From an uncultured Candidatus Saccharibacteria bacterium (GTDB taxonomy: Bacteria > Patescibacteriota > Andersenbacteria > UBA10190 > CAIZMI01), in contig CAZVRG010000001.1 in the NCBI GenBank assembly GCA_964630025.1, positions 1 through 55,361 of the forward strand: a stretch of 55,361 bases of DNA. Reading direction: 5' to 3'. A program made the translations under genes and the position numbers. The notes under the pieces were generated by a model, which worked only from the letters and a program-made list of their open reading frames with translations, searched no databases and had not been told where the DNA came from. How positions within the stretch are numbered: the stretch's first letter is position 1; each line of letters starts with the position of its first letter. Below, piece by piece: positions 1 through 47,863 of this stretch.

Positions 1-1
1 G

Positions 2-1030
2 ACGCTTTCCGTTATTGCACGTGAGCGGCCATCGTGGAAAACCGCGGCGCTTGCGGGAAGCACATGGAGTCTTGGCTTCATGACAAAATCACCGGCGTTT
101 TTCTTTCTCCCTATCGTTCTTCTCCCCTTCTTACTCCGCCCACTCTCCCAATGGCGCATCACCGTCCGCGACCTCGGCGCATGGGTCATTGCAGCAATGG
201 GAACGGCAATCGCCATCTGGCCGCCGATGTGGTCTCATCCTCTTCTACGTCTCCGGGATGTCTGGAACGATATGTTTTCTCACGTGGAAATGCCGGAAGT
301 ATACGTGTGGCCGCAGCCACATTTCCCCCTGTTCATGACGCTCCTGTCATTTCTTGCGCTGAGCGGTGTCGCACTGTATATCGGCATTCGCGGCTGGTCG
401 CTTCTCCGAAGAAAAGATATTCTGCAATTTCTTTTGACTGATCTGTTCCTGTGTGGCGGACTCCTGTTCGGGATCTTGCTCCTTGCTGCCGGAGGTGACC
501 ACGCCCGGAAAAGTCTCCCCGCACTCGCGTTTCTCGCTCTTCCGGGAGCCCTCGGCTGGCTGCGTGCAACAGAACGCATACACATCGTTCCTTCAGTCGC
601 AGCGGGCGGGTTGCTTGTGCTTCACGGCGCACTTCTTGTTCCGTGGTTTCCGCACCTTCCCTCATTTCACAATCCGCTACTTGATACGGAAGGAAAACGT
701 TTGCTTGCTGACGTAGGAAATGGCACACGACCCGTGGCGGAGTACTTCAATGCCCGACCACCGGTTGTCTTCGCAACAAATCTTCCCGGTTTGATCCAGC
801 CATACCTTACAGAAGACCGACGCGGCAATGTGCGTCGTCTTCCAAAATCCGGAAATCTCGCGGAGCTCCCGGATGAGGTTGCGTATCTGGTGATCCCGGA
901 GAGTTTCCCCGCCCGCGTCCTCTTCGACCGCGGTGCCGTCGAAACACTTCGTCAACTGCAGCATCAGCAGCCCGAGGCGATTCTGCGTGTGCGGGATGTC
1001 CCGCTCTTCTCCATCGTACGCACCCGCTGA
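2..1030 (+). CDS. C-terminal part of a polytopic membrane protein (probable GT-C glycosyltransferase); the 5' end lies outside the window
   Basis: The frame is open from nt 2, with no stop before the ATG at 80, so the ORF is cut by the window edge. It has several hydrophobic helices (FFFLPIVLLPFLL, LFLCGGLLFGILLLAAGG, AAGGLLVLHGALLV) followed by a ~130 aa soluble tail. This is the same layout as the complete GT-C proteins downstream. Confidence 0.55.
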   Translation, partial: TLSVIARERPSWKTAALAGSTWSLGFMTKSPAFFFLPIVLLPFLLRPLSQWRITVRDLGAWVIAAMGTAIAIWPPMWSHPLLRLRDVWNDMFSHVEMPEVYVWPQPHFPLFMTLLSFLALSGVALYIGIRGWSLLRRKDILQFLLTDLFLCGGLLFGILLLAAGGDHARKSLPALAFLALPGALGWLRATERIHIVPSVAAGGLLVLHGALLVPWFPHLPSFHNPLLDTEGKRLLADVGNGTRPVAEYFNARPPVVFATNLPGLIQPYLTEDRRGNVRRLPKSGNLAELPDEVAYLVIPESFPARVLFDRGAVETLRQLQHQQPEAILRVRDVPLFSIVRTR

Positions 1031-1054
1031 CGCCCGGCGCGTTCTCTCCGCTTC

Positions 1055-2137
1055 CTACGTACTCCTCTTCGCGCTCACAGAAATGCGCGTCGCTTCCCGC
1101 ACAACCGTCTCGGGTGGGAGTACCGCATCAACAACATTACGATCGTTGTACTGCCGCCGGTAATACTCCCGGAATCGTTCGGAATTCTTCACCGGCTTCC
1201 ACCACGTTTCGTGCGTTCGATACCACGCAATCGTTTCCGCAAGTCCTGTGTCGAATGAAACCGTTGGTTTCCATCCAAGCAGTTCCGCTTTCGTACTATT
1301 GAGCGCGTACCGACGATCATGTCCTGCACGTTCCGGATGTGGTTCAATCCAGGATGCATCTTTTCCGAAATCACCAAGAATGCGATGCGTGAGCTCGCGG
1401 TTGGAAAGCTCGAATGTGCTGCCAAGGTTATAGACTTCGCCCGGCGTCCCTTTCTCGAGCACCGTCAAAATGCCGCGTGCATGATCATCAACGTACAGCC
1501 AATCACGTCGATCGGAACCATCGCCGTACAGCGGCACCTTCCTTCCCTCAAGCAGATGGGTGATGAAGAGCGGAATAATTTTCTCCGGATACTGATACGG
1601 GCCATACGTATTGGACCCGCGTGTGATGAGGGCAGGGAAGCCGTATGTCCGAAACGCGGCGCGCACCTGTAGATCGCCACCGGCTTTCGAGGCGCTGTAC
1701 GGGCTATTCGGCTGCAACGGGGACTCCTCTGTCCAGTGTCCTTCCTGAATACTTCCGTACACTTCGTCCGTGGATACCTGCAGGAAGCGCGCAATGCCAT
1801 GCGCGCGCGACTGCTCAATAAGCGTGTGGGCGCCCACAACGTCGGTGATGGCAAAACCGCGCCCACTCAAAATGGAACGATCTACATGACTCTCCGCCGC
1901 GAAATTGACGACCGCATCAATGGAAAAATGATCGAGCACCCATGCGACATGTTCCTCGTCAACAATGTCGCCGCGAACGAATTGATACCGACCGGCAATC
2001 TCCGCGAGGTTCTGCAAATTTCCCGCGTAGGACAACTTGTCGTAGACGACCAACGTCCACTCCGGGTGTTCGCGCGTCAGCAACCGCGCAAAAGCGGATC
2101 CGATAAACCCCGCACCACCGGTCACTAAGATATGCAT
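1055..2137 (-). CDS. rfbB: dTDP-glucose 4,6-dehydratase
   Basis: 360 aa. It has the Rossmann motif ILVTGGAGFIGS and the extended-SDR catalytic region STDEVYG ... PYSASKAGGD (YxxxK). The full length is colinear with the RmlB/RfbB family. Confidence 0.92.
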   Translation of the reverse strand: MHILVTGGAGFIGSAFARLLTREHPEWTLVVYDKLSYAGNLQNLAEIAGRYQFVRGDIVDEEHVAWVLDHFSIDAVVNFAAESHVDRSILSGRGFAITDVVGAHTLIEQSRAHGIARFLQVSTDEVYGSIQEGHWTEESPLQPNSPYSASKAGGDLQVRAAFRTYGFPALITRGSNTYGPYQYPEKIIPLFITHLLEGRKVPLYGDGSDRRDWLYVDDHARGILTVLEKGTPGEVYNLGSTFELSNRELTHRILGDFGKDASWIEPHPERAGHDRRYALNSTKAELLGWKPTVSFDTGLAETIAWYRTHETWWKPVKNSERFREYYRRQYNDRNVVDAVLPPETVVREATRISVSAKRST

Positions 2138-2323: not shown

Positions 2324-3649
2324 ATGTCTGCGCTTCAGCGTCCTGTCTCTGTTGCGTGCCGCGGATGCGGCCACGCGCCCATGGAGTCACTGTTCGATCT
2401 CGGCAACGTGCCATCGGTGAATTCGTTTCCCACAACCGAGCAGATCCCGCACGAGCGACCAGCGCTGTTGGAAATGTGCGTATGTCCGCACTGCACTCTC
2501 GTGCAACTCTCGACAACAATTGCGAAAGAAGACCTGTTCACCGAATACCGTTATCTCTCGTCAGCGTCACAAACCCAAATCCGGTATCTGGGCGATCTGG
2601 CGGCGATGCTCGCGAAGCGATTCACGCTGCATGAGCACTCGCGGATTCTCGAGGTTGGTTCAAACGACGGAACGCTGCTTGCCGCGTTTCTCCCGTGGAC
2701 AAAACACATCCTCGGCATTGATCCGGCAAAAAATCTCGTGCCGGAAGCGTCCTCTCGTGGCGTTCCGATGGTTGCTGATTTTTTGACCGAAGAAACAGCA
2801 GAACAGATCACAAAGGAGCACGGCCACTTCGATATCATCCTCGGGTTGAACGTGTACGCGCATAACCCAGACATCGGCGCGCTGCTCCGCGCGACGCATA
2901 CCCTGCTATCTCCCGATGGCACGTTCATACTGGAGGCTGTCAATGCTTCGAAAACGATTCTTCGGGGTTCGTACGACACTGTCTATCACGAGCATGTCTT
3001 TTGCTATTCTCTGACCGCGTTGCACACACTCTATGCGCGCGCCGGGTTGACGGTGGTGGATGTGGAAGAAACGCCCATGCAGGGCGGAAGCCTCCGCGTG
3101 TATGCGCAGCGCACAGATCATCACCCGACAATTGCGCCCGCTGTTGCACAGATGCTCGACGATGAGCGCGCCGACGGCATCACCAATCTCGGAACATACC
3201 AACGCGTTGGAGAATCCGTGCGGCAGCACATCCACGCATTACGCGAAGGTGTCGAGGAATTACAGCGGCGCCATGGCCGCGTCTGGGCGCTCGGTGCTTC
3301 GGCGCGCGGCGTCGTCATTTTGAACGCCGGAAAACTGGACACGACGGTGATTGAATGTATTGTCGACGACACACCGCTGAAACAAGGTCGGCACGTCCCC
3401 GGCGTGCACATTCCCGTCGTTGGATGGGAGACACTGCGCGCGCTCCCTAAAAAACCAACGGCATTTCTCCTTACCGCATGGAATTACGAGCGGGAAGTGC
3501 TCGAAAAATTGCAGCGCCTCGGTGATGTTCATGAGGCGGAGATCATTGTGCCGTTCCCTGCGTTACGAACAGTGGCGCTGCAACGCGTTGTTGCCGAAGA
3601 GACCTATCCGATTCCCCTGCCCACCCAAAACGCGCGAGAAGTTCGCTGA
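2324..3649 (+). CDS. SAM-dependent C-methyltransferase, NDP-hexose C-methyltransferase type (paralog 1 of 3)
   Basis: 441 aa. It has an N-terminal Cys4 zinc ribbon (CRGCGH ... CPHCTLVQL), the SAM motif ILEVGSNDG, and a C-terminal Rossmann-like domain (ALGASARGVVILN, DDTPLKQGRHVPGVHIPV, LLTAWNYEREV). The domain order is that of TylCIII/NovU-type enzymes (Methyltransf_13 + Methyltransf_14). Confidence 0.8.
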   Translation: MSALQRPVSVACRGCGHAPMESLFDLGNVPSVNSFPTTEQIPHERPALLEMCVCPHCTLVQLSTTIAKEDLFTEYRYLSSASQTQIRYLGDLAAMLAKRFTLHEHSRILEVGSNDGTLLAAFLPWTKHILGIDPAKNLVPEASSRGVPMVADFLTEETAEQITKEHGHFDIILGLNVYAHNPDIGALLRATHTLLSPDGTFILEAVNASKTILRGSYDTVYHEHVFCYSLTALHTLYARAGLTVVDVEETPMQGGSLRVYAQRTDHHPTIAPAVAQMLDDERADGITNLGTYQRVGESVRQHIHALREGVEELQRRHGRVWALGASARGVVILNAGKLDTTVIECIVDDTPLKQGRHVPGVHIPVVGWETLRALPKKPTAFLLTAWNYEREVLEKLQRLGDVHEAEIIVPFPALRTVALQRVVAEETYPIPLPTQNAREVR

Positions 3650-3690: not shown

Positions 3691-5313
3691 TTATGTATTC
3701 CTCCACACAAGTGTGTGGATGCGCGTGATGTCGTAATCAACGACGGAATCGTAGCCGATCGGAAAGCGAATTTCCTCGGTTGTTGTGACGACGCCGCGTT
3801 TCTTGAGGACATCAAGAATGCGCACCATGCGCGGCTCACCGCGCTCGACAAGATAGCGAATATCTAACCGCTGCATGTTTGCAATGTGTGCGGCCGTCTG
3901 ATCGGCGAGCGTCTTTCCCCGCTCCACTTCCGACGCCTCGCCAAGCATGATCGCGCGCTGCGGCGGCGCGTACTGCTCGCCAATGATGCCGAGATACAGG
4001 ATGGCCATGAGATCGTGATTCAATGCAACGCGGCCTTCACGGTTCTGGAGCTCGCGGATCGCAAGGTGCAAGGAATATCCTGATCCCTCATTGTCGAATG
4101 CGCGGGTATGAATTGTTCCGGCAAGTGCAGGTGCTTCTTTTGTAAACATCCAGGCGAGGAAGGCGAGCACCGCTCCCGTTGCTACGGTGCGCAACACCTT
4201 TGGGCGGAATAGCCGGTGCGCAATGGTGAAGAGCGCGGATGCCCCCGCTGCAGCCATGAGATAGAACGCGGGAATGCCCGGCGCGACAAAACGACCGTAC
4301 ACCACCCACATGGAATACAGCGTTGAGAATACGAGGAACACTGCGACAAACGGCAGGACTGCCCGTCGTGCCGTCATTAGAAGCCACAGAAGACCAATGA
4401 GCGCGAGAATACTTATCCACCACGGCGCCGACTGCAGCGTACGGAGAATCGGTTTTTCACCGCCTTGCTCCAGCTGCCATCGCGGCTCCTCCCACGGGCG
4501 CATCCATCCAAGGCCGCCGGCAATCTTTTCCAGTTTCGCGGGAATATCCTCCAGCTTTCCTCCCACGGCGCCTTCCTTGCCGCTCCACTCCGTGAAATAC
4601 CCGCCGCCGATAGATCCGTGGACATACAACGCGTAGGGAACCCACGCGACATACAGCGCGATAACCGGAATGGCGGCAACGAAGACGTAACGCCACGACA
4701 GACGGAGAAATAGCAAACCGATAAAGACGGGCGCGAGCACCATGCTTTCAAAGCGCGTGAGCATAAGCAGACCAATCAGCCCCCCGGCAAGCAACGTGGA
4801 ACGCGGAGAAGGCCCGACCACCGTCACCGCGTACGTACAGGCAACAACAAGGAACAGAAAAAGACTGTCCGATAACGGACGTATGCCCGTTTCGTTCGAT
4901 ATCGGCACCAGCGTTTGAAGAAGCAGGAACAGTGCAAGGGGCAGCGGACGAATGCCAAAACGGCGACCAAGCAGATAGAGCAGCCCCGTTGTGCCGGCTC
5001 CCGCGATGATGCTGATGGCTTTCGCGGTGACGAGCGGATCAATGCCGAGGCCTTTCCATCCGACAAGAATCAGCAACGGGTAGAGCGGAAGCCGTTTCTC
5101 GCCCTGCGGAATACGCCCCTGGCTATAGGCCTGGGACATGAAGAGGAAGTTATATGTGTCTCCGGGCTCCGAAACATTTCTCTGCACCGCAATGTATGTG
5201 CGTTCTCCAAGCGCGAAAGAGACCAAGGCAAGAAGGATCAGCGCTTCAACCGCCCGCGGCTGTTTCACCCATGCGCGAAGCTGTTCTCGAATACGCTGCA
5301 ATCTCATGATCAT
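3691..5313 (-). CDS. GT-C fold membrane glycosyltransferase, ArnT/PMT-like
   Basis: 540 aa with more than 10 hydrophobic helices. It has a first-loop acidic/aromatic motif (EPGDTYNFLFMSQAY) and a ~150 aa soluble C-terminal domain. Its ATG lies 3 nt after the stop of the upstream carbamoyltransferase. Confidence 0.72.
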   Translation of the reverse strand: MIMRLQRIREQLRAWVKQPRAVEALILLALVSFALGERTYIAVQRNVSEPGDTYNFLFMSQAYSQGRIPQGEKRLPLYPLLILVGWKGLGIDPLVTAKAISIIAGAGTTGLLYLLGRRFGIRPLPLALFLLLQTLVPISNETGIRPLSDSLFLFLVVACTYAVTVVGPSPRSTLLAGGLIGLLMLTRFESMVLAPVFIGLLFLRLSWRYVFVAAIPVIALYVAWVPYALYVHGSIGGGYFTEWSGKEGAVGGKLEDIPAKLEKIAGGLGWMRPWEEPRWQLEQGGEKPILRTLQSAPWWISILALIGLLWLLMTARRAVLPFVAVFLVFSTLYSMWVVYGRFVAPGIPAFYLMAAAGASALFTIAHRLFRPKVLRTVATGAVLAFLAWMFTKEAPALAGTIHTRAFDNEGSGYSLHLAIRELQNREGRVALNHDLMAILYLGIIGEQYAPPQRAIMLGEASEVERGKTLADQTAAHIANMQRLDIRYLVERGEPRMVRILDVLKKRGVVTTTEEIRFPIGYDSVVDYDITRIHTLVWRNT

Positions 5314-5316
5314 TCT

Positions 5317-7029
5317 TTACGGCTTCATAACACGAAATTGCTCCATAACCAGCGTATCAATACCGCCGCGGAGGAATTCTTTGATGGCATCATCCGGCGT
5401 GCACACGATCGGTTCTTCATGCTTGTTGAAGCTCGTGTTAATGCACATGGGCAACCCTGTCAGTTCCTCGTGCCGCCGCAGGACCGCGTGAATACGAGGT
5501 TGCTGTTCCCGACGCACGACCTGCGGACGCGCGGTGCCGTCTTTATGCACAATGCCGGGCGCTTTTGTGCGACCTTCTTCCGTGACGTCAAAACAGATGG
5601 TCATATACCGTGCCGGATAGGCGCTTTTCGCAAACTGATGAAAGTATCTGGGTGCTGCTTCTTCCAGAATCATCGGCGCGAAAGGCATGAACTCGGTGCG
5701 TTCAAGGCGCTTGTTGAGCCAATCCATCATCGTGACATCCGTTGGCTCCGCGAGGATCGAGCGGTTCCCGAGCGCGCGCGGGCCAAACTCCATACGCCCT
5801 TGATAGACACCGACAACGCGCTTTGCCTGCAGTTCTCGGGCAATGAAATCCGCGGGATCCGGCAATGCGACAAGTTCGACATGCTGCGCTGCCGCCGCCT
5901 GCCGAATATCCTCGTTGCTGAATGCAGGACCGAAATACAGATGGGAAAGGCGGAACGGCCGCAGCGGACGGTGCCGGGCGGTTTCCAACAATGCGGCTCC
6001 CATCGCGAGTCCACCGTCGCCCATGTGCGGGAAAATGCTGACAGAGGTTACTTCCGGAAGCTCTGCGATCTTTTGGTTTACGCGGACATTCGCAAACGTG
6101 CCCCCGGCAAAGGCAATATGGGTGATGCCTGTGCGCGTGATCGCGGCCCGTACAACGGTGATGAACGCATCCTCGAGCACTTTCTGCGCCGCATACGCAA
6201 GCTCTTCCCGTGAGGCGCCCGGCAACACTTCCTGAATGCGTGCACGTTCGTGTTGCCAGATTCTTCGCTCTTTGTTATCGAACCGAAGGTGCGCCGCATG
6301 TCCGCCGTACAACGTGCGGAGTTTTTGGTACGCATCCGGACTGGGGCGATACGCGGCGAGTCCGGTAATTTTTCCCGCGTGGCGGACCGGCTTGAATCCG
6401 CACATGTGCGTGATCACATCCCAAAATCTCCCGGACGAATGGATAACGGACGACCACGCAATACGCGTGAGGCGCCCCTCTTTCCCCACAGAAACGGATC
6501 CGGTACGCCCATCCCCCGAACCATCCGCGGTTATGACAAGGACTGGATCGTTTCCCGACGTGAAATAGGCGCCGGCGGCATGACAGGTGTGATGATCGTA
6601 GAAGGTCATCGGCGCTGTAACGCCAGCGCCGCGTATGCGGCGCTCTACGTCTCCTCGATTTCGCTGCCACTTCCCTACCGTCCGGACAATTTCAGCAAAC
6701 GTCCAGGTGTCCGTGAGCGGCCCAAGAACATTCGTCAGCGGCTGCGCAATGCGCCGGAACATATTCATCTGTCTCGGGTCAAACGACACGGTCGTCCAGT
6801 CTTCAAACTTTGTGAGACCGGCTACCGCGACTGCCTGAATATCTGCCGGCGCTACGCCGGTTGTCGTAAACAGATTCTGCAGGCTGAGGTGCGGGAACCC
6901 CCAGTGAAACTTGGTGCGGGAGAAGCGTTCTTCGTTGGCGGCATAGATGATGTTGCCGTCTTCCAACAAGACGACGCCGGCATCGTGGCCGTCGTGGATG
7001 CCAAGGACACGGAACGGTTGCGTGGGCAT
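5317..7029 (-). CDS. carbamoyltransferase, NodU/CmcH family
   Basis: 570 aa. The N-terminus VLGIHDGHDAGVVLLEDGNIIYAANEERFSRTKF and the C-terminus NTSFNKHEEPIVCTPDDAIKEF are the hallmark ends of the NodU/CmcH/NovN O-carbamoyltransferase family. Confidence 0.9.
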   Translation of the reverse strand: MPTQPFRVLGIHDGHDAGVVLLEDGNIIYAANEERFSRTKFHWGFPHLSLQNLFTTTGVAPADIQAVAVAGLTKFEDWTTVSFDPRQMNMFRRIAQPLTNVLGPLTDTWTFAEIVRTVGKWQRNRGDVERRIRGAGVTAPMTFYDHHTCHAAGAYFTSGNDPVLVITADGSGDGRTGSVSVGKEGRLTRIAWSSVIHSSGRFWDVITHMCGFKPVRHAGKITGLAAYRPSPDAYQKLRTLYGGHAAHLRFDNKERRIWQHERARIQEVLPGASREELAYAAQKVLEDAFITVVRAAITRTGITHIAFAGGTFANVRVNQKIAELPEVTSVSIFPHMGDGGLAMGAALLETARHRPLRPFRLSHLYFGPAFSNEDIRQAAAAQHVELVALPDPADFIARELQAKRVVGVYQGRMEFGPRALGNRSILAEPTDVTMMDWLNKRLERTEFMPFAPMILEEAAPRYFHQFAKSAYPARYMTICFDVTEEGRTKAPGIVHKDGTARPQVVRREQQPRIHAVLRRHEELTGLPMCINTSFNKHEEPIVCTPDDAIKEFLRGGIDTLVMEQFRVMKP

Positions 7030-7794: not shown

Positions 7795-7851
7795 GCGAAA
7801 AGCGCGGAGTGGGTTTGCGCCGCACACCGCTCCACCGCTACGCTTCCACCC

Positions 7852-20110: not shown

Positions 20111-20246
20111 TGCATCGTTCCCGATCGCTCCCATACGGGTGACTGTGCGTCGTGGTCGGAAGATCTTCCTCTTCTCATGAAGAAGGGGGGTGCTCCGATC
20201 GAGGAGGTGCGATGCCGCATGCGCAGTGGCACGATATACTGACATC

Positions 20247-24569: not shown

Positions 24570-24589
24570 GATATACTCCGGATACGTTT

Positions 24590-25342: not shown

Positions 25343-25346
25343 ATGT

Positions 25347-34071: not shown

Positions 34072-34122
34072 ATGAGAGCGTCAATAGGCTCGGGGCACTT
34101 GCCGAAAATAGTCGCCGTAGTT

Positions 34123-34980: not shown

Positions 34981-35059
34981 CGTTCGGACGTTGTCTTGGG
35001 GCACCGTACCAAGACCTCGCCGCGCGGAACCCCAATCGCACTTGTGCTAGCGTAGGGAT

Positions 35060-40074: not shown

Positions 40075-41690
40075 CCGACCAGCAACCAACACTCGCGCAC
40101 GCAGCGCGATCAGGAACGGCTATTGGCATCGCCCAGGTGTTCAGCTATGCGGCAAGTTTTGCACTGAGCCTTGCGATCGCCGCGACATTCGGCGCGGGAC
40201 GAACAACCGACGCGTACTTTATGGCAACATCTACCGCTGAGCTCCTTGCGAAAATCCTTCTTGGCGGCGCAGTGACCTCTGTTCTGCTTCCGTACTTCGT
40301 TGCATATCTTGCGAAGGGAAACCCCGCGCGCGCATGGGCGCTGTTTTCTTCCCTCTTCTCGCTTGCCGTTGTGGCGTTTCTTGTCTTCGGCACCACGCTG
40401 CAAGTATTTGCGAACGGGCTCGTCGCCTTCATCGCCCCGGGGTTTTCAGAGGAAACGCGTCTTCTGACCATTGTCCTGCTGCGTCTGGTCTTTCCGGCAT
40501 ACCTGTTGTCGTTCTTGGCGGATCTCGCCATGGTGCCTCTGCACGCGCAGGGACGCTTCGGCCTGCCGGCACTGTCGCGACTCGTTGTCCCCGTCATAAC
40601 GCTTCTTGCGTTTCTCGCCTTCGCGGGACGCATCGGCATCAGCGTTCTCGCAATCGGCACACTCATCGGCACCGCTGTGCAGTTGGTTCTTCTGCTCTTG
40701 GCGCTCTCGCGCGTCGGATACACTCCCACCACCCGTCTGTGGAATCCCGACCTGAAGCGCATTCTTTTTCTGACGCTTCCGTTCATTCTCTCCATTCTCG
40801 CTGCGCAGGGAGCGGGCATTGTGTATCGCATCTTTGTCTCCATGGAGCCGGAAGGATCATTGGCGAGTTTGAAATTCAGCGAGCGGATTTTTTTCATCGC
40901 CAATACCCTGTTCCTGGGGACCATTGTGCAGGTTTCCTTTCCTGCCTTTGCCCGCGCTGCTTCCACGTCGCTCGCGGAGGCGCAGGAACGATTGCGCACG
41001 GCATTTCGTCTCGTGACCCTCGCCGGTATTCCTCTGACCGTCGGTTTGATCCTTCTCCGCACCCCGCTCATTCGCGTGCTCTATGAGCGCGGCGCCTTTA
41101 CCCCCGAAGATACGGCCGCAACCGCCCTACTCGTCCCGTTCTTTGTTCTCGGACTGCTCGGGAACGGGTGGAGTTCTCTCCTCGGCCACTTTGTGCTTGC
41201 ATTTCAGGAAACACGAACGGCCGTCGGAGTGTCGGTTGCCCTCCAAGCAATTGCGGCGGGATTATTCGCCCTGCTCGTCCCATCACTGGGGATCGTCGGC
41301 CTTGCCCTGGTCTCCGGCGTAGGACCGCTGGTGTTGACGACACTGTATCTGTGGGCGTTTCGCGCGCGCATGCCGTCACTGCGCGTTCTCTTTTTCAATG
41401 CGTATACGGGTCGTCTGGCACTTGCAGGCGGCATATGCGCGCTGTTGGTCACCGGTGTTCTCTGGTTCGCGCGGACGGTTCCACCAAGTACGAGCACAGA
41501 TCTCGGTACGTTGCTGATTGCGGGCATCGGCGGCGGGGGCGCGTATCTCCTGACGGCATGGTTGCTTGGCGTTCCCGAAACAGGTATGGTACTTCGTCTT
41601 CTCCGACAGGAATGCACCCGCATGACCAACACTGTTCGCACCAATCTTTCTCTGCTGGGAAACGGTATGATGCGAAGACGCCTCCCATGA
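40071..41690 (+). CDS. murJ: MurJ/MviN-family (MOP superfamily) lipid-linked glycan flippase
   Basis: About 539 aa from the ATG at 40071, which makes an ATGA overlap with the upstream stop. The N-terminal pattern FGAGRTTDAYFMATSTAELLAKILLGGAVTSVLLPYF matches the MurJ signature FGAG-x2-TDAF ... P. It has about 14 TM helices. Confidence 0.75.
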   Translation: MTDQQPTLAHAARSGTAIGIAQVFSYAASFALSLAIAATFGAGRTTDAYFMATSTAELLAKILLGGAVTSVLLPYFVAYLAKGNPARAWALFSSLFSLAVVAFLVFGTTLQVFANGLVAFIAPGFSEETRLLTIVLLRLVFPAYLLSFLADLAMVPLHAQGRFGLPALSRLVVPVITLLAFLAFAGRIGISVLAIGTLIGTAVQLVLLLLALSRVGYTPTTRLWNPDLKRILFLTLPFILSILAAQGAGIVYRIFVSMEPEGSLASLKFSERIFFIANTLFLGTIVQVSFPAFARAASTSLAEAQERLRTAFRLVTLAGIPLTVGLILLRTPLIRVLYERGAFTPEDTAATALLVPFFVLGLLGNGWSSLLGHFVLAFQETRTAVGVSVALQAIAAGLFALLVPSLGIVGLALVSGVGPLVLTTLYLWAFRARMPSLRVLFFNAYTGRLALAGGICALLVTGVLWFARTVPPSTSTDLGTLLIAGIGGGGAYLLTAWLLGVPETGMVLRLLRQECTRMTNTVRTNLSLLGNGMMRRRLP

Positions 41691-43000
41691 GATTTGCGTG
41701 TGTCGAATATACGACAAAGACCGGGGCGATGTGGCGTCATACGCCCGAGCGGCCAAATTATCTTGCGGATCCGGAAAAAGAAATCGATCCGACAAGCTTT
41801 GGCTGCTACACCTCGGCGTTCGAAGGGGTGCATGTGCCGCTCTCCGGATTGATTTACGAATCGTTGACGAAACCGCCGTCAGCATTTCGGCGATTGCGCC
41901 AAGACCTGACGCGCACGCGCACCGGTGCGTTCGCGTCATACGATCTGTCGCTCCTCGCATCGCTGGATGTTCTCCTGGTTATTTACCAGATGAGTAACGA
42001 CGACGAGTTGGTCAGATTTGTGCAGCGCGTCCGCAAGGAATTTCCGGATCTCATTCTTGTGAGTTCGTCTTCGCCTCCCTTCGGTCGCTTGCGAGAGCAT
42101 TGGAAAGATCATCCGGATGCCATTACTCGATACCAAGCATTCATCAACGCAACGCACATGAACATGAATGTCTGTCGGGCGACTGTCCCGTATTACACAC
42201 ACCTCGTAGAGACGCCGTCTCTCTACCTTCCGCAACCGTATCCGGTGGAGTATGCAATATCTCGGGTGGGAACCGCTTCGGAGCTGGCACCCCCAACGCT
42301 CCTTCGGATGTCGCGTTGGGGCCCCCGCCGCTCTCCTCCGATGCTCCCCCCTCCCGCTAGAGGTGTCGCTCGGCCCGGGCCCGATTACCCGCGGCCTCGC
42401 GACCGTGAAACGATTTCATCATCTCGACCAATAATCTACGTTTCGGGCGATACCGTCCGACCGGATATTCTCGCCGGACATCTTGTCGCGCGAGAATTGC
42501 AGAAACGACATCCGGACATGCTCATTCGCATCACAAAAACACCAGAGTTCTCTCTCAACACCGCACTCTTGGAGGGTGCCGGGTATGAGGTCGTGCCCTT
42601 CCGACCGTGGGCAGAGCAGCTTGTTGAACTTGCGACTGTTCGTCTTGTACTCAACACCGATATGTGGTGGACACGCGGTCGCGTGCAGGTGGATTGTGCC
42701 GCCGCCGGCGTTCCGTGCGTTGGCACAACCAGTGATGGGCAAACAGAGCTCTGGCCGGAACTCACCGCACCACACAGCACGGACATTGCCGCCCTGCTCG
42801 CTCTTTCAGAACGCGCATTGACCGATGAGGCATTTCGCGCGTCCGCCATCCGCACAGCGCAACGACGCCTCGCCCACTATGCCTACGAGCCAACCGTGGA
42901 GCGCTTCACGCGTGCCGTGGACTCTGTCCGCACTGGACAACGCGCCGATTGGCACGACCCTATCTGGGAGCACGATGCTCTCACACTCCCAACACCATGA
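41687..43000 (+). CDS. putative GT-B fold glycosyltransferase with a Pro/Arg-rich internal insertion
   Basis: 437 aa from the ATG at 41687 (ATGA overlap with the murJ stop). The 173-codon upstream extension in the track overlaps murJ. The C-terminal region RGRVQVDCAAAGVPCVGTTSDGQTELWPEL resembles the donor-binding loop of GT1/GT4 enzymes. Confidence 0.45.
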   Translation: MRFACVEYTTKTGAMWRHTPERPNYLADPEKEIDPTSFGCYTSAFEGVHVPLSGLIYESLTKPPSAFRRLRQDLTRTRTGAFASYDLSLLASLDVLLVIYQMSNDDELVRFVQRVRKEFPDLILVSSSSPPFGRLREHWKDHPDAITRYQAFINATHMNMNVCRATVPYYTHLVETPSLYLPQPYPVEYAISRVGTASELAPPTLLRMSRWGPRRSPPMLPPPARGVARPGPDYPRPRDRETISSSRPIIYVSGDTVRPDILAGHLVARELQKRHPDMLIRITKTPEFSLNTALLEGAGYEVVPFRPWAEQLVELATVRLVLNTDMWWTRGRVQVDCAAAGVPCVGTTSDGQTELWPELTAPHSTDIAALLALSERALTDEAFRASAIRTAQRRLAHYAYEPTVERFTRAVDSVRTGQRADWHDPIWEHDALTLPTP

Positions 43001-43569
43001 GCGTGAAGAATGTCCGCATCTGGATACTGCGCCGTCTGCGAACCGCCGAGACACGTTCCGAGGCAGCTGCATTCGTCATTCTTGGAATGACGTGTATCGC
43101 GTTGTTTGCGTACGCCGCAGGCTACGCGAGACGGGAGTACCGAGATGGCCTGCGACGACAGTACGTGCGCGAAATGAAATCCGAGCTCGAGCGTTCATTC
43201 AACACGGTAAACGGCTTCCCCCTTCATCCGTCGGGAGATCTTGGGTGGTGCGGATCAACAGAGGACCCGGAGGACTGGTTTTTCACTGCCTTCCTGAAAC
43301 GCGAGCGGCGCTGGAGCAGTGCTCTGTACACGCCGGCGCAACAAAACGGAATTTTTCGGTATTGCCCAACTGCGGTCGGAGGAAAAACAACAACGGGCAG
43401 ACCGCTCGCCGCGGGGTTTTTTCTGGAGGCCGCGCTGGAAAATCGTGATCCGGACACGGGCGGATTCAACACGGAGTACAACATGTTTGAACGCACGCTA
43501 ACGGAAAGCGGACACACCGTCTTCCGCGTTTGCGGGGGAACAGAAGCGCAGTGCGGAACAGAGCGATAG
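42997..43569 (+). CDS. hypothetical membrane-anchored protein with four Cys in its exported domain
   Basis: 190 aa from the ATG at 42997 (ATGA overlap). It has one TM helix (AAAFVILGMTCIALFAYAAGY) and then a ~130 aa domain with Cys at WCGS, RYCP, RVCGG and AQCG. I recognised no family. Confidence 0.5.
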   Translation: MSVKNVRIWILRRLRTAETRSEAAAFVILGMTCIALFAYAAGYARREYRDGLRRQYVREMKSELERSFNTVNGFPLHPSGDLGWCGSTEDPEDWFFTAFLKRERRWSSALYTPAQQNGIFRYCPTAVGGKTTTGRPLAAGFFLEAALENRDPDTGGFNTEYNMFERTLTESGHTVFRVCGGTEAQCGTER

Positions 43570-43585: not shown

Positions 43586-44653
43586 ATGCAGCCGCAACGC
43601 GTATTGCTGAAACACGTGGGAAATATGGGAGACCATCTATTTCTCGTGGGCGCGTTGCTGGAAGGCATTGCCCGCACGTGGCCCGATGCGGAGGTAACAC
43701 TGGTGACCGCGTGGGGATACAAAGATCAACACGGACGATGGGGAAAAAGAAACCAGGACGGCTACTGCATCGCGCTTATGAAAGAGAACCCCCACGTGGA
43801 TCAGCTTGTGCACTGGAGCGATCATGACTGCGCACTGGATGGCAGCATATGCGTGGAAGATGGAAAAGTATTTCCGACATGGAATCGCGCACACTTTCAT
43901 CGCGTCGCACCGGACTATGATGTTGTGGCGGAGCTCGAATTCGGTCTCGTCACGGAAGAAAATCCGCTGGAGCGCATCGCAGCAGCAGTGGGCCTTTCGC
44001 ATCTGCAGATCGGACCATATCCGTTCTATGGTTCCCCGCGGGATTTCGAGATCGGAGAGGAGATCGCAAGCCACTTCCCGCGACCGCGCGTAGTGTTTCT
44101 TGAGGGACTGAATAGCACAACAATGCGTGGGTGGGATCCAGGGAAAGTACCCGTTCTGACACGTCGTTTTGTGGATGCCGGCATCACGCCGATCTGGTGG
44201 GGGGCAGCACACGCACCTATGGTGCATGGACGACGCGCACAGTTGCGGGAGAACATTGCCTTCCTGAAACACTGCGATATCGCCATTGGCGTCCTGGGCG
44301 CTCCGATGCATTTCGCAACTGCCGTGGGTACGCAAACGATTTGCCTCTACGGGGCGCAATCATACGCGCGTGCCGCGCCGGGATTTTTTGTGAATCCGAG
44401 CATTGCGGATCGCACGCGCCACCACCTGACAATTTTCGGCCCGACGTGTGATGAACCCTGTTTACTGAAACGAGAACTCCCGTGCAAAAATCTTCACGGA
44501 GAGGCGCGCATGACGACCGGATTCCGCAGTTGGCAATCGCCTGGACGCCAGGATGACAAATCCTGCCTTGCGACGATTGATGTTGAAACGGTCTTCGCAA
44601 CCGCACGCGATGCGCTTGTGCGCAGAGAGATATGGCCACACACGGCGGAGTGA
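43586..44653 (+). CDS. glycosyltransferase family 9 (heptosyltransferase-like)
   Basis: The N-terminus is RVLLKHVGNMGDHLFLVGALLEGIARTWPDAEVTLV. The C-terminus is LRENIAFLKHCDIAIGVLGAPMHFATAVGTQTICLYG. Both match the GT9 pattern (GD ... P ... DSGPMHLAAA ... LFG). Confidence 0.68.
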   Translation: MQPQRVLLKHVGNMGDHLFLVGALLEGIARTWPDAEVTLVTAWGYKDQHGRWGKRNQDGYCIALMKENPHVDQLVHWSDHDCALDGSICVEDGKVFPTWNRAHFHRVAPDYDVVAELEFGLVTEENPLERIAAAVGLSHLQIGPYPFYGSPRDFEIGEEIASHFPRPRVVFLEGLNSTTMRGWDPGKVPVLTRRFVDAGITPIWWGAAHAPMVHGRRAQLRENIAFLKHCDIAIGVLGAPMHFATAVGTQTICLYGAQSYARAAPGFFVNPSIADRTRHHLTIFGPTCDEPCLLKRELPCKNLHGEARMTTGFRSWQSPGRQDDKSCLATIDVETVFATARDALVRREIWPHTAE

Positions 44654-45369
44654 TGCGCAGCGTGGTCGTCATTCCCACCTATAACGAGCGGGAAAATATG
44701 CTCCCGCTTCTTGACGCATTGGAAAAACACTGCGCCCCCTCTGTCTCCTTCCTTGTGGTGGACGATTCGTCTCCGGATGGAACAGGACAACTCGTTCGCG
44801 AGCGTGCGGCACGCGACCCGCGTGTCCATCTTCTTCTCCGTACAAAAAAAGAGGGTCTTGGTCCGGCATATACTGCGGGATTCGCGCATGTGCTGAGCGG
44901 CGCGTTGGGAACTGTGCCCGACGTGCTCGTGCACATGGATGCCGACTTTTCTCACCCCCCAGAAGACGTTCCTCGTCTTCTTGCCGCACTTGACCATGCG
45001 GATCTCGTTGTGGGATCTCGCTATTGCCCGGGCGGATCCGTCGAGAATTGGGAACAGCGACGGCGGTTCTTGAGTCGTGCAGCCAACATCTATGCCCGCC
45101 TCTTCACGCGCGCCCCCATTTCCGACCTTACCGCCGGCTTTTGTGCCTGGCGCACTGACATGCTCCGACGTGTTGATTCCGCGACAATTCGCGCGGACGG
45201 ATATGGCTATCTCATTGCCATGAAAGTGCGCGCCGCGCGCGTCGGTGCCCGCATGGCGGAAATACCGATTGTGTTCCGCGATCGACGTGGTGGGGTTTCC
45301 AAGATCAGTTCTTCCGTCATCAGCGAAGCGGCGTTTCTTGTCCTCCGACTCGCGCTGCGTCAGTGGTAA
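44653..45369 (+). CDS. polyprenol-monophosphate sugar synthase (Dpm1/Ppm1-like GT2)
   Basis: Motifs: VVVIPTYNERENM, VVDDSSPDGT, MDADFSHPPED. The start overlaps the GT9 stop (TGATG). It is a paralog of 12810..13625. Confidence 0.85.
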   Translation: MRSVVVIPTYNERENMLPLLDALEKHCAPSVSFLVVDDSSPDGTGQLVRERAARDPRVHLLLRTKKEGLGPAYTAGFAHVLSGALGTVPDVLVHMDADFSHPPEDVPRLLAALDHADLVVGSRYCPGGSVENWEQRRRFLSRAANIYARLFTRAPISDLTAGFCAWRTDMLRRVDSATIRADGYGYLIAMKVRAARVGARMAEIPIVFRDRRGGVSKISSSVISEAAFLVLRLALRQW

Positions 45370-45385
45370 CGTGTGAGTACCCTGG

Positions 45386-47863
45386 ATGAAGCGTGTGTGG
45401 ACAATGGGCATTCTGGTCGGCTTCGCGGTTGCTCTTATTGCTCCGTACACACTCTTCGCGTTTCTGCTGACGGGAGATGTGCGCGACACATACCTCCCCA
45501 TTGAAGATTTCTATCGCGGTGAGCTCCGCGCAGAGCGTCTTCCGGCGTGGGATCCGAATATTGCGATGGGATTTCCCGTGCTCGCTTCCGCCCAGACAGG
45601 ATTTTGGCAATTCCCGCTTCTTCTCCTTCGCCCGTGGACGTCCCCGGAGCAGGGATATGCGATTGCGTATCTTTTTCACGCAATCCTCCTTGCGCTTGGC
45701 ACCTATGTTTATGCGCGTTCGCTCTCGCTGTCACGAACCGGCGCCCTTCTTACCGCGCTCGGATTCACCGGAAGCGGATTTATGGCTGGTCACCTCGTCC
45801 ACGGAAATATTTTCTTCAGCGTTGCGTGGATGCCCTACGCGCTTCTCTGCGCAGATCGCCTCGCTGCCTCGCTGCGCCTTCGCCCATTTCTCCTGCTTAG
45901 TTGCATCCTGGCCCTCGCCACATTCCCGGGACATTTCCATGTCGCGGGCATGATGGTCGTGCTCGTGCTCACGCGGCTTTTCACGCAACTGCGCGCGCGC
46001 TACACCGCCGTTCCATTCACGCATACGATGTGGACATTCGGCCTCTTCGCCGCACCGCTTCTCGTCGTATGGGTGGCGTTGACCGCCGCACAGTTGTTTC
46101 CGACGCTTGAACTCATCCGCGAGTCCACGCGCGGCATGGGCGAGGGATTTGATATTGGCCGGGCAAATCAGCACTCCTTTCCACCCTGGCAGCTCATGAC
46201 GTTTGTGATTCCGGCGTTTTTTGGTTTTCCGGATCTCTCGGAGTATTGGGGGACACGGCCACAAATTGAAATGACGGCATGGATCGGAACGATCCCACTG
46301 CTCCTCGCGCTGATCGGAGCAACGGGAAAGCTCCAATCCTCAAATTCCAAATTCCAAACAAGTTCCAAAGACCAACATCTAAAGATGGGTCGGTCCGCAT
46401 TTTGGATGTTGAGAATGTTGAACGTAAAAATTGTTTGGAGCTTGGTGCTTGGATTTTGGAATTTTTGGACGGTCGTCGCCGTCCTGAGTTTTCTCCTCGC
46501 TCTCGGCCGGTGGTCACCGTTCCGCCTTATTGGCATCGAACCGACATTGGGCATCTTTTCCTCGCCTGCGCGGTACCTGTTGTTTATGCAATTCGCGCTC
46601 GCGCTTCTCGCGGGAAGAGGACTCGACCGCGTCGCAGTCCTGCCGCACGCCGCGCAGTGGGTTGGACGCTTGGGCATCGGCGCGGCGCTGGCCGTCACGT
46701 CCGGTTCCGCGCTCGTGAAGCTGGCGCCGGATCTCCTCCGCCGCCTCGGCGCTCTCGCCGTGGACCGCTTCATCCTCGGCGCAGCGGGCCACGTACTCTC
46801 GCGGGAGTCCTACCTGCAAAAAATCGACTATCTCCTGGAACGCGTCTCGACGTGGGGTGTGAACCTCGGAAATCCCCTGGTGCTGTTGTCTGTCGTTCTC
46901 CTCGCCGCCGGCGGCCTTGCCCTCCAGAGTCGCCGAAGTGCTATCATCCATGATAGCAGCCTCGCGAGAAAAAGTGTTCTGATCTCCGGACTCGTCATTG
47001 CAACCGCGTTCGAACTCATCGTGCTCGCCTGGCAGGTACACCCTAGGGTCCCGTGGACAGAACTATCGAAAACTTCTCCGGTTGTGCAGGTGCTGCGCGA
47101 ACGTCCATGGGGTCGCCTCTACGCCGCCCACCCGCAGGGAGATACCGGGCTCTATGTGGCGAATCCCACCACCGCGAACCGCAACGAGCATGAACACCTT
47201 CTCCGCGATCTCCCGGTCGCCAACATCTTTACCCGTGCCGGTATACCAAGTATCGAGTGGACAGCGGCGCTCGATCTCGCCCGCGCGTCGGAACTGCTCT
47301 CGCGCCTCCGTGACGCGGAGGGCCGTCCTATCAATGAGAATCTCCTGGATCGGTTCAGCGTTCGATACGTTACCGGCAGCACCAACACGCCGGATCTGTT
47401 TCTACCGCCCCCGGCACGCGAACTCTTCACTATGCAGAGTGGAGAGAACGCGACGATCCGCGTCTGGGAACGACCAACAGCGCGACCGCGCGTTGAGGTG
47501 CTTTCAGCATTGCCCAAAGAAATCACGGAGCCGCTTCCCTCCTCCGCCGGGACAGCAGTAATCGTGATGGAAACGCCGCACCGCCTTTCTATCGGCGTCA
47601 GAAACGACACGCAACAGGAAACCGCGCTTGTCGTGCGCGATACGTGGTACCCCGGCTGGGATGCGACGCTTGATCAGACGCCGGTGCCGCTCGTGCGTGC
47701 GGAAAGTATTTTTCGCGGCGTGATGGTGCCGCCAGGCACGCACCTCGTCAGGATGACATATCATCCGCGGGCGCTCCAAAGCGGTATGATCGTCTCGGGG
47801 ATTGCATTCTCCGGCGTGGCGTTTCTTCTTCTCCTTCCCCTCCTGAAGCGACGCTCTGTATAA
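45386..47863 (+). CDS. YfhO-like GT-C membrane glycosyltransferase
   Basis: 825 aa. It has the first-loop motif LPAWDPNIAMGFPVLASAQTGFW and many TM helices. The C-terminus is YPGWDATLDQTPVPLVRAESIFRGVMVPPGTHLVRMTYHP plus a terminal anchor. It carries a 135 nt in-frame repeat insertion. Confidence 0.75.
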   Translation: MKRVWTMGILVGFAVALIAPYTLFAFLLTGDVRDTYLPIEDFYRGELRAERLPAWDPNIAMGFPVLASAQTGFWQFPLLLLRPWTSPEQGYAIAYLFHAILLALGTYVYARSLSLSRTGALLTALGFTGSGFMAGHLVHGNIFFSVAWMPYALLCADRLAASLRLRPFLLLSCILALATFPGHFHVAGMMVVLVLTRLFTQLRARYTAVPFTHTMWTFGLFAAPLLVVWVALTAAQLFPTLELIRESTRGMGEGFDIGRANQHSFPPWQLMTFVIPAFFGFPDLSEYWGTRPQIEMTAWIGTIPLLLALIGATGKLQSSNSKFQTSSKDQHLKMGRSAFWMLRMLNVKIVWSLVLGFWNFWTVVAVLSFLLALGRWSPFRLIGIEPTLGIFSSPARYLLFMQFALALLAGRGLDRVAVLPHAAQWVGRLGIGAALAVTSGSALVKLAPDLLRRLGALAVDRFILGAAGHVLSRESYLQKIDYLLERVSTWGVNLGNPLVLLSVVLLAAGGLALQSRRSAIIHDSSLARKSVLISGLVIATAFELIVLAWQVHPRVPWTELSKTSPVVQVLRERPWGRLYAAHPQGDTGLYVANPTTANRNEHEHLLRDLPVANIFTRAGIPSIEWTAALDLARASELLSRLRDAEGRPINENLLDRFSVRYVTGSTNTPDLFLPPPARELFTMQSGENATIRVWERPTARPRVEVLSALPKEITEPLPSSAGTAVIVMETPHRLSIGVRNDTQQETALVVRDTWYPGWDATLDQTPVPLVRAESIFRGVMVPPGTHLVRMTYHPRALQSGMIVSGIAFSGVAFLLLLPLLKRRSV
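46331..46465. repeat. CCAAA/TTTGG-rich nested imperfect palindromic element inserted in-frame in 45386..47863
   Basis: TCCAAACAA (46353-61) pairs with TTGTTTGGA (46431-39). The inner pair is CAACATC / GATGTTG. It shares GTTTGGAGCTTGG with the element at 38662..38757. It encodes 45 aa (LQSSNSKFQ ... LVLGFWNF) where paralogs have a short R/K-rich loop of about 8 aa. Confidence 0.65.

Follow-up and report, generated by a model that had tools for sequence, protein, structure and literature searches.

The transfer of single sugars across the bacterial membrane follows a scheme that is already known and has been reviewed (PMC8035078). In the multi-component systems of Gram-positive bacteria (CsbB/GtcA/YfhO, GtlA/GtlB, GacI-L and CsdAB/CD/EF) a glycosyltransferase family 2 (GT2) enzyme loads the sugar, the product is flipped, and a membrane glycosyltransferase of the GT-C fold, of PMT_2 or YfhO type and with an aspartate in an outer loop, passes it to a wall polymer; known genomes contain one to three scattered GT2/GT-C pairs (PMC8035078). 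Here we analyze a contig of 55,361 bp (CAZVRG010000001.1; "the window" below is this whole stretch) from an uncultured bacterium of the Candidate Phyla Radiation (CPR, or Patescibacteria), which carries genes for five GT2s and eleven predicted GT-Cs in a single island. We lean towards reading it as a cell-envelope glycosylation island in which the known multi-component transmembrane scheme is run many times in parallel. Its probable role is to build or decorate an elaborate glycan of the cell surface; the mechanism is known and the scale unusual.

The window is an entire contig, on which about 40 genes, nearly all of them sugar-related, were mapped from open reading frames (ORFs) and profile searches. 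The contig starts within a GT-C gene (g01), so the locus extends further. The stretch was also found in an ENA assembly, and its proteins are identical to those of a fragmented metagenome-assembled genome (MAG), GCA_007375805.1, named "Parcubacteria group bacterium Gr01-1014_106" (Patescibacteria/Parcubacteria group). Its GT-C genes, some with an added N-terminal domain (N-domain), are as follows.

2..1030, plus strand: g01, PMT_2-type GT-C truncated at the contig end to its C-terminal 342 amino acids (aa) (PMT_2 E = 5.5e-3, 17.4 bits)
3691..5313, minus strand: g04, ArnT/PMT-like GT-C without a Pfam match, assigned by AlphaFold2 and Foldseek
7852..10248, plus strand: g07, GT-C (PMT_2 33.3 bits) with N-terminal transmembrane (TM) helix and β-sandwich (N-domain E = 6e-7); NDEGSIL at residue 243
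10245..12761, plus strand: g08, GT-C (PMT_2-like, 24.2 bits) with N-terminal TM helix and β-sandwich (N-domain E = 3e-8)
15679..17277, minus strand: g12, GT-C (PMT_2 40.3 bits); TDENKL at residue 29
20190..22661, plus strand: g16, YfhO-like GT-C (27.7 bits, E = 1.2e-6) with N-terminal TM helix and β-sandwich (N-domain E = 1.6e-8)
26598..29480, plus strand: g20, YfhO-like GT-C of 960 aa with a large C-terminal outer domain (YfhO E = 7e-5, PTPS_related E = 6e-4)
29483..31837, plus strand: g21, YfhO-like GT-C with N-terminal TM helix and β-sandwich, assigned by AlphaFold2 and Foldseek
35060..37348, plus strand: g25, g04-like GT-C with N-terminal TM helix and β-sandwich (N-domain E = 7e-13); GDAFNY at residue 244
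37498..40074, plus strand: g26, YfhO-like GT-C (26.7 bits, E = 2.4e-6) with N-terminal TM helix and β-sandwich (N-domain E = 1e-5)
45386..47863, plus strand: g32, YfhO-like GT-C (25.5 bits, E = 5.5e-6)

An earlier note, made from the DNA sequence alone, had proposed eleven GT-C enzymes here, and all eleven large polytopic ORFs exist where it placed them or right beside, with all ten of the motifs it quoted located in the expected proteins; the start of g21 is better set at 29483, and that of g28 (below) at about 41687. Six of the eleven are PMT_2/ArnT-like (g01, g04, g07, g08, g12 and g25) and five are distantly YfhO-like (g16, g20, g21, g26 and g32). The ten complete ORFs contain 8-13 hydrophobic segments apiece, against 4 in the truncated g01. 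Their assignment as GT-C-fold enzymes of two families, with predicted activity, is supported because profile matches, structural models of two Pfam-negative proteins (AlphaFold with Foldseek), links among paralogs and an aspartate conserved after the first core helix all point the same way, which upholds the proposal.

In the first family, the curated Pfam cut-off for PMT_2 (PF13231, 26.1 bits) is passed by g07 and g12 and missed by g08 and the g01 fragment, while g04 and g25 had no PF13231 match in the Pfam scan. The score of g07 against the Pfam PMT family, 22.5 bits, is just under that family's cut-off of 22.7, and g08 is 33% identical to g07 over its full length. The g01 fragment is the C-terminal two-thirds of a PMT_2 protein of about 515 aa: its full-length orthologs in two related loci (L082 and L083) have 512 and 518 aa, are 70% and 60% identical to it, match PMT_2, and carry a DE motif after the first TM segment (TM1). 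For g04 we made an AlphaFold2 model from 11 orthologs (pLDDT 68.7), and in a Foldseek search of the PDB only GT-C enzymes were significant (PglB at 2e-4, then AglB, Pmt4 and ALG3); one g04 ortholog (P0001) bears PF13231 itself. BLASTP links g25 to g04 (7e-9), and its GDAFNY aligns with the motif aspartate.

Four of the five members of the second family match YfhO (PF09586, cut-off 28.5 bits) at 21.8-27.7 bits, with E-values from 1e-6 to 7e-5, just below threshold. The fifth, g21, has no Pfam match; its model, built from 40 homologs, has a pLDDT of 91.5 and is closest to EmbA/B (5e-6), with STT3, PglB, ArnT, AftD, AftA and ALG12 also listed. Foldseek TM-scores among GT-C structures are low (0.2-0.4), and the ranking is one by fold. 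BLASTP interlinks all five.

All five YfhO-like paralogs keep the aspartate that closely follows the first core helix, and it is near-invariant (D252) in the 40 g21 homologs. In the other family the D of the DE or GD motif is aligned across the PMT_2-like proteins and the g01 orthologs, D52 is invariant in the 11 g04 orthologs, and a DE motif follows TM1 in g07, g08 and g12 as well as in the g01 orthologs. The earlier note had placed an acidic motif in the first loop of the PMT-like proteins, where we find it; the FPGWNP-type motifs it picked out in the YfhO-like proteins are conserved but non-acidic, and there the invariant aspartate lies some 20-25 residues upstream.

We also considered g04 as an oligosaccharyltransferase and rejected this, as it has neither a WWDxG motif nor an STT3 match. 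No window protein contains WWDxG and no scanned ORF has an STT3 Pfam match; the structural likeness to PglB, AglB and STT3 is one at the level of the GT-C fold. NCBIfam searches with the ten complete GT-Cs gave only insignificant or far-sub-threshold matches, single-sequence PDB searches with g12 and g16 gave nothing useful, and an hhalign comparison of the shallow g04 alignment with g12 was uninformative.

The GT-C genes are accompanied by five GT2 genes and two candidate flippase genes:

7042..7827, minus strand: g06, polyprenyl-phosphate-sugar-synthase-like GT2 (PF00535 119.6 bits; 5MLZ 2.5e-22, then ArnC and GtrB)
12810..13625, plus strand: g09, polyprenyl-phosphate-sugar-synthase-like GT2 (PF00535 82.3 bits; 5MLZ 4.4e-24)
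18231..19097, minus strand: g14, polyprenyl-phosphate-sugar-synthase-like GT2 (PF00535 113.8 bits; 5MLZ, ArnC and GtrB; AglJ 111 bits)
24566..25342, plus strand: g18, PpgS-like GT2 (PF00535 55.2 bits; PpgS 70.9 bits; 5MLZ 1.3e-6)
44632..45369, plus strand: g31, polyprenyl-phosphate-sugar-synthase-like GT2 (PF00535 96.1 bits; 5MLZ 2.1e-32 over residues 8-239)
31863..32864, plus strand: g22, flippase-like membrane protein of the MprF flippase-domain family (PF03706 129 bits; TIGR00374 78.2 bits, cut-off 43.2)
40044..41690, plus strand: g27, MurJ-family flippase of the MOP superfamily (PF03023 202 bits, cut-off 27.4; TIGR01695 206 bits, equivalog cut-off 235.55)

All five GT2s match PF00535 strongly, and the best solved relative of each is the dolichol-phosphate mannose synthase of Pyrococcus furiosus (5MLZ), matched across the entire catalytic domain at E-values between 2e-32 and 1e-6. 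ArnC comes next for four of them and GtrB matches two, while g18 matches 5MLZ alone. The top NCBIfam models, all below their equivalog cut-offs, are AglJ, dolichol-phosphate hexose transferase, PpgS, ArnC and PgfS. These comparisons support all five as polyprenyl-phosphate-sugar-synthase-like enzymes, in agreement with the Dpm1/GtrB/ArnC type first proposed. They are only 22-43% identical to one another, and g14 has two C-terminal hydrophobic segments by hydropathy.

Every GT2 gene shares a same-strand run with one or more GT-C genes, at gaps between -4 and +48 nt, so the interleaving described in the earlier note is real. The short runs are g06-g05-g04, g07-g08-g09 and g14-Rieske-g13-g12, and the longer ones are g15-g16-g17-g18-g19-g20-g21-g22 and g25-g26-g27-g28-g29-g30-g31-g32. 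In one relative a 1055-aa protein (P0022) consists of a GT2 domain (PF00535) fused to a g21-type GT-C (51% identity to g21), which supports a functional coupling of GT2 and GT-C.

The GT-C ORFs fill 24.2 kb of 47.9 kb, or 50.6% of bases 1-47,863. As a rough baseline we used 67 glycan loci from many phyla, retrieved through carbamoyltransferase homologs and averaging 18.5 kb. These have a mean of 0.54 ORFs (maximum 3) matched by the GT-C profiles of the window, compared to 10-11 in the window itself and 5 per ~20 kb in two related CPR loci. Because the profiles were trained on this window they under-count other GT-C families in the baseline, and the number of ORFs that reach both 450 aa and 8 TM segments (mean 1.25, maximum 4) is a fairer upper bound. 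By either count the density of GT-C genes is above that of ordinary loci, as had been suggested.

An N-terminal domain is common to six of the GT-Cs (g07, g08, g16, g21, g25 and g26), which come from both families. The g21 model starts with a TM helix; next comes a β-sandwich (residues 35-178), similar in Foldseek to lectin-like and jelly-roll domains, and after it the GT-C core. A hidden Markov model of this segment, made from g21 homologs, detects the N-termini of the other five, g25 most strongly. Its conserved positions include an invariant Q (consensus Q-T-F), Y..G and G-D-L-A-F. Pfam searches with the isolated N- and C-terminal domains returned no family, only a faint hint of DUF4082, which for the β-sandwich is backed by one multi-copy relative. 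Searching 1.84 billion representative sequences with the β-sandwich profile gave 1491 clusters. Most copies occupy residues ~25-190 of proteins of 600-900 aa; others are stand-alone (135-280 aa), C-terminal, or in multi-copy proteins. Among ten carriers that we scanned, two match PMT_2 (one above the cut-off) and one matches DUF6541.

Stand-alone copies with the arrangement TM-domain-TM (239-246 aa) are found in an Anaerolineae MAG and a JGI metagenome (L087, 4670-6720; L088, 4668-6741). Their genes overlap the ends of genes for 10-TM proteins of 435-444 aa that have HDEEFH or GDELGH after TM1, and the surrounding clusters hold Bac_transf and GT4 genes. The neighboring proteins have no Pfam family, and an hhalign comparison of the g04 alignment with the 444-aa one was uninformative; they are GT-C-like only by their ten TM segments and DE motif, and on this basis each pair may be a split GT-C with an acceptor-binding subunit. 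The β-sandwich would then be an acceptor-binding partner, fused to the enzyme here. It has been suggested that small GT-Cs may depend on a second protein to bind the acceptor, and acceptor recognition by them has been called an open question (PMC8035078); a domain that occurs either fused to GT-Cs or beside small GT-C-like proteins bears on it.

Genes for sugar tailoring lie between these modules and downstream of them:

1055..2137, minus strand: g02, dTDP-glucose 4,6-dehydratase (TIGR01181 407.8 bits, cut-off 365.1)
2324..3649, plus strand: g03, NDP-hexose C-methyltransferase paralog 1 (Methyltransf_13/14/23; 36% identity to g19)
5317..7029, minus strand: g05, carbamoyltransferase between GT2 g06 and GT-C g04 (Carbam_trans_N and Carbam_trans_C, 104 and 203 bits)
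13477..14862, minus strand: g10, NDP-hexose C-methyltransferase paralog 2 (Methyltransf_14 159 bits)
14921..15682, plus strand: g11, S-adenosylmethionine (SAM) methyltransferase (Methyltransf_25/11)
25287..26576, plus strand: g19, sugar 3-C-methyltransferase paralog 3 (MtmC 4RV9, 4.9e-95)
34123..35004, minus strand: g24, SAM methyltransferase (Methyltransf_23 92.9 bits)
47920..51501: NDP-sugar tailoring genes of cupin/isomerase-like, epimerase/reductase, GFO-type oxidoreductase and short-chain dehydrogenase/reductase type (Pfam)

The three C-methyltransferases (g03, g10 and g19) all have Methyltransf_13 and Methyltransf_14 domains, as in MtmC and TcaB9. Only g19 was compared with solved structures, and its MtmC match extends over residues 29-428, with KijD1 and TcaB9 also matched. 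The order GT2-carbamoyltransferase-GT-C around g05 is kept in two relatives (L082 and L001). NovN-type carbamoyltransferases are known from the tailoring of noviose in antibiotics. With a dehydratase that passes its equivalog cut-off, three 3-C-methyltransferases and a carbamoyltransferase, the earlier note's prediction of heavily tailored sugars is supported.

Comparative genomics of the locus, which that note had recommended, showed the island to be syntenic in independent assemblies of relatives (50-77% identity). Orthologous islands occur in L082 (where the g04 ortholog is 77% identical), L083, L086 and L091, and the nearest species-representative locus, on a 136-kb contig, is also from Parcubacteria. 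Orthologs are 50-85% identical whereas paralogs within the island are only 25-33% identical, so these are old and presumably specialised enzymes rather than recent copies. The blocks kept among relatives include several genes outside the categories above; further genes of the window are:

17277..18225, minus strand: g13 (201 aa, no family) and a 119-aa Rieske [2Fe-2S] protein (Rieske 37.5 bits), between GT2 g14 and GT-C g12
19226..20110, plus strand: g15, membrane-anchored trypsin-like serine protease with one N-terminal TM segment (Trypsin_2 52.8 bits)
22758..24569, plus strand: g17, soluble protein of 603 aa with a weak polysaccharide-lyase-like signal
33108-34028, minus strand: g23, ClpP/SDH-type serine-protease-like protein (PF01972 27.7 bits, below cut-off)
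41687..43569, plus strand: g28 (437 aa, probable GT-B glycosyltransferase; weak Glyco_trans_1_2, E = 0.033) and g29 (~190 aa, one TM segment)
43586..44653, plus strand: g30, GT9-like glycosyltransferase (PF01075 26.3 bits, cut-off 22)
52318-53514: TagF-like gene (weak Glyphos_transf, E = 3.5e-4)
53547-54023, minus strand: Cys-rich ORF of 158 aa with no family, adjoining the TagF-like gene
54104-55315, minus strand: g41, in which only the final ~45 residues of a NeuB domain are joined to a SAF domain and a xylose-isomerase-like TIM barrel (AP_endonuc_2)

Three blocks are conserved: C-methyltransferase-methyltransferase-GT-C-g13-Rieske-GT2; GT-C-g17-GT-C-(GT2)-flippase-like; and GT-C-MurJ-g28-g29-GT9-GT2. 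In the last of these the position of g27 is kept in L089 and L091, where g28 and g29 are also called as genes. Variable modules are g18-g20, a GT2 gene after g21 that is present in relatives only, g15 (in L086 and not in L091), g23, and a PHP gene. The g18-g19-g20 module, with its GT2 gene (24566-29480), is unique to this genome in a comparison with L086 and L091, which instead have a GT2 gene between their g21 and g22 orthologs. In the NCBI MAG g20 is broken up among several short contigs, as would be consistent with variation between strains at this spot. In three more distant loci (L084, L085 and L092, with 38-39% identity to g21), a g21-like and a YfhO-like GT-C gene are followed by two or three genes for large TPR proteins and a PMT_2 gene; before them lies an rml-type block for sugar nucleotides that includes a Polysacc_synt (Wzx-like) gene.

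Several of these genes have features of their own. L086 and L091 keep the gene order of the operon of GT2 g14, the Rieske protein, g13 and GT-C g12; the Rieske protein might serve to oxidise an intermediate, either sugar or lipid. In g17 and two orthologs Pec_lyase matches fall in the same region each time, at E-values of 0.02, 0.009 and 0.0009, none above threshold; g17 orthologs carry a precomputed Ulvan_lyase_N match, and no relative of g17 was found in the PDB. Homologs of g17 with ~30% identity adjoin carbamoyltransferase genes in glycan loci of Deltaproteobacteria, Phycisphaeraceae and others (L034, L041, L046 and L048). For g28, no significant relative was found in the PDB, and an ortholog has a similarly weak Glyco_trans_1_2 match (E = 0.0035). 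The TagF-like gene might point to a polymer of glycerol-phosphate type. The domain combination of g41 is unusual, and the gene sits at the contig end.

The scheme that we favor for the island would have five steps. First, cytoplasmic enzymes would make unusual dTDP-6-deoxyhexoses, a chemistry suggested by the families present: a 4,6-dehydratase, three 3-C-methyltransferases, enzymes of keto-isomerase, epimerase and reductase types, methyltransferases and a carbamoyltransferase. Second, the five divergent GT2s, judging by their family, would couple single sugars to polyprenyl phosphate on the inner side of the membrane. Third, the lipid-linked sugars would be flipped, with MprF-type g22 and/or MurJ-family g27 as candidates. 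Fourth, the eleven GT-Cs, to which fold and catalytic aspartate lend an expected transferase activity, would move the sugars to an acceptor outside the membrane, each presumably with its own donor, linkage or site. Fifth, the β-sandwich of six GT-Cs may hold a common acceptor. As this acceptor we favor a membrane- or wall-linked glycopolymer, because of the genomic context of the β-sandwich, the weak but consistent lyase-like signal of g17, and the conserved genes for cytoplasmic glycosyltransferases; its primer may come from the MurJ, GT-B, GT9 and TagF-like genes of the island. The conserved block of MurJ, GT-B, small membrane protein, GT9 and GT2 genes, together with the TagF-like gene, could make and export such a lipid-linked primer locally, and this somewhat weakens the earlier suggestion of an acceptor built elsewhere.

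Several observations count against this scheme. There is no nucleotidyltransferase gene and no gene for polyprenyl-phosphate synthesis in the window, and four of the five GT2s have no membrane segment, their association with the membrane being assumed. Both of the flippase-type proteins named in the earlier note do belong to flippase families, but a GtrA-type flippase was not found (the window has no small four-TM GtrA-like ORF), and g27, which passes the Pfam MurJ cut-off and falls below the TIGR01695 equivalog cut-off for lipid II flippases, may be the housekeeping lipid II flippase of the cell. The five proteins called YfhO-like hold up as such through sub-threshold matches, the g21 model and BLASTP links, yet none reaches the curated YfhO threshold, and they are distant relatives rather than curated members. 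Three GT-Cs (g04, g21 and g25) have no Pfam match at all, and the confidence of the g04 model is moderate. The case for a glycopolymer acceptor is indirect, made from domain context and weak lyase-like, GT-B and TagF-like matches.

One alternative, possible though rather unlikely in our view, is that the GT-Cs carry out a full extracytoplasmic polymerisation from polyprenyl-phosphate monosaccharides, as in mycobacterial arabinan and mannan synthesis, and not mere decoration. The excess of eleven GT-Cs over five GT2s would suit it, as Emb and Aft enzymes share one donor, and so would the position of EmbA/B as best structural match of g21 (with AftD and AftA listed), the carbohydrate-binding-like β-sandwich modules on GT-Cs and the PpgS-like g18. 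The Foldseek ranking is however by fold, at the low TM-scores given above, Pfam scans of the window ORFs found no donor-synthesis family of the decaprenyl-phospho-arabinose type, and processivity cannot be read from sequence.

We regard it as unlikely that the GT-Cs instead O-glycosylate Ser/Thr-rich surface proteins such as pilins, S-layer proteins or adhesins, on the model of Ppm1/Pmt or PgfS/PgfM1/PgfM2. The DE motif after TM1 in g07, g08, g12 and the g01 orthologs is placed as in PMTs, there are PMT as well as PMT_2 matches, one operon includes the membrane-anchored protease gene g15, and pilin glycosylation has been predicted in Saccharibacteria (PMC11623550). The C-terminal ends of GT-Cs are also faintly PgfM1/M2-like (E = 0.006-0.017), but these matches are not significant. 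Against this reading, proteins are no more frequent targets of PMT_2 and YfhO enzymes than are teichoic acids and polysaccharides (PMC8035078), the window encodes no candidate substrate protein, and the stand-alone β-sandwich is found in polysaccharide clusters.

An ordinary Wzx/Wzy O-antigen or capsule locus, with its initiating phosphoglycosyltransferase (PGT), polymerase and ligase beyond the contig ends and the GT-Cs as accessory side-branch enzymes, seems to us quite improbable. It is true that the locus continues past the contig start, that a MOP-superfamily flippase is present, and that distant relatives carry a Wzx-like gene near g21 homologs. The earlier note, which had recognised no WecA/WbaP, Wzy/WaaL or PglB/AglB gene, named an adjacent PGT with a Wzx/Wzy system as an observation that would overturn its reading. 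Window ORFs of at least 150 aa have no Pfam match to a PGT (Bac_transf/WecA/WbaP), Wzy or WaaL, and no PGT, Wzy or ligase was seen in ~90 kb of flanks of L082, L083, L086 and L091, although the contig's own end, inside a GT-C gene, leaves that side of the comparison to the relatives. Half of the DNA also goes to GT-Cs, far beyond the glycan-locus baseline. Finally, a chimeric or mis-binned contig, or a set of decaying or non-functional GT-C genes, is suggested by the breakage of the region into 3-7-kb contigs in the NCBI MAG and by a taxonomic label that derives from binning, but is extremely improbable in view of intact ORFs throughout, a gene order repeated in independent assemblies from other samples, orthologs at the identities given above with the catalytic aspartate retained, and a nearest species-representative locus that is likewise parcubacterial.

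A tRNA scan and an Rfam scan of the window returned nothing, a repeat scan found no long repeats or insertion sequence elements, and PADLOC, run on its odd genes, reported no defence system, its sole match being the protease domain of g15. The G+C content is ~57% across the contig except for one island at 32850-34100 (41-48%), which contains g23 and an ORF of 62 aa (32915-33103, minus strand) in which the motif EEIKKL recurs. This island is missing at the corresponding position of L086 and L091, and an exact-sequence look-up found g23 in this contig only and not in the fragmented MAG; the island was probably inserted recently. A 28-nt hairpin-forming sequence, TCAGGTCGTCCCCGCGAAAGCGGGGACC, has two copies with 93% identity (23996-24023 and 50644-50671), one within the g17 ORF and one between the genes g35 and g37; with just two copies it is not an array.

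CPR bacteria are ultrasmall and mostly episymbiotic, and the genome of this one is presumably very small. To our knowledge, essentially nothing is known of CPR surface chemistry. With half of 48 kb given to GT-C genes, such a cell would seem to invest heavily in an elaborate outer glycan. We also entertain, as a doubtful extension, that an episymbiont builds a complex heteroglycan largely outside its membrane, with eleven GT-Cs drawing on five polyprenyl-phosphate-linked branched and carbamoylated deoxysugars and the β-sandwich, fused to the GT-C here or present as a subunit of its own in other phyla, holding the glycan as it grows; the module-by-module variation of the island would then make this glycan a variable surface identity, for host attachment or phage evasion. 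Glycosylation has been called "unexplored" in Saccharibacteria (PMC11623550), and multiple "dolichol-phosphate mannosyltransferase" genes have been remarked on in CPR genomes (PMC4736985, PMC6031116). In the literature on GT-C or YfhO proteins in CPR we found no earlier description of GT-C islands. Four things are new here, in kind or in degree: the size of the system for a lineage with reduced genomes, the distance of its enzymes from the curated families, the toolkit for branched and carbamoylated sugars in a surface-glycan setting, and the shared β-sandwich. The island supplies concrete genes for testing CPR surface glycans, and its three 3-C-methyltransferases and carbamoyltransferase point, in that context, to sugars that are familiar mostly from antibiotics.

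Among known systems, the Gram-positive ones run from GT2 through flipping to a PMT_2- or YfhO-type GT-C, the route proposed for the island, and in both the GT2 and GT-C genes are adjacent. They differ from the island in that here five GT2s and eleven GT-Cs are brought together in one place, no GtrA was found, a membrane anchor is missing in four of the five GT2s, the sugars are probably deoxyhexoses with C-methyl and carbamoyl groups and not Glc, Gal or GlcNAc, and six GT-Cs have the extra β-sandwich. The mycobacterial set for arabinogalactan and lipoarabinomannan (EmbA/B/C, AftA-D, and PpgS with Rv3779) is alike in its many GT-C paralogs, few polyprenyl-phosphate-sugar donors and carbohydrate-binding modules, and EmbA/B head the structural matches of g21 while g18 is PpgS-like; yet the window GT-Cs are not Emb or Aft proteins by sequence, and no arabinose-donor family appeared in Pfam scans. 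ArnC/ArnT and Ppm1/Pmt share the pairing of a GT2 synthase with a GT-C and, in the PMT_2-like members, the DE/D motif after TM1. Only the g21 model resembles ArnT, and only in fold; the likeness to PMT is weak (the near-threshold Pfam score of g07 and fold-level Pmt4 matches), and both systems differ from the island in paralog number and extra domains. The streptococcal Pgf locus (PgfS, PgfM1, PgfE and PgfM2) combines a GT2 with two YfhO-like GT-Cs, and the GT2s here match PgfS weakly, but the PgfM1/M2 matches are not significant, and there is no adhesin substrate gene nearby. Closest in sugar chemistry is the deoxysugar tailoring of antibiotics (MtmC, TcaB9 and KijD1), with the full-length match of g19 and the co-occurrence of dehydratase, C-methyltransferases, methyltransferases and carbamoyltransferase; there, however, these enzymes belong to natural-product clusters with GT1 transferases, whereas here they accompany surface glycosylation by GT2 and GT-C enzymes.

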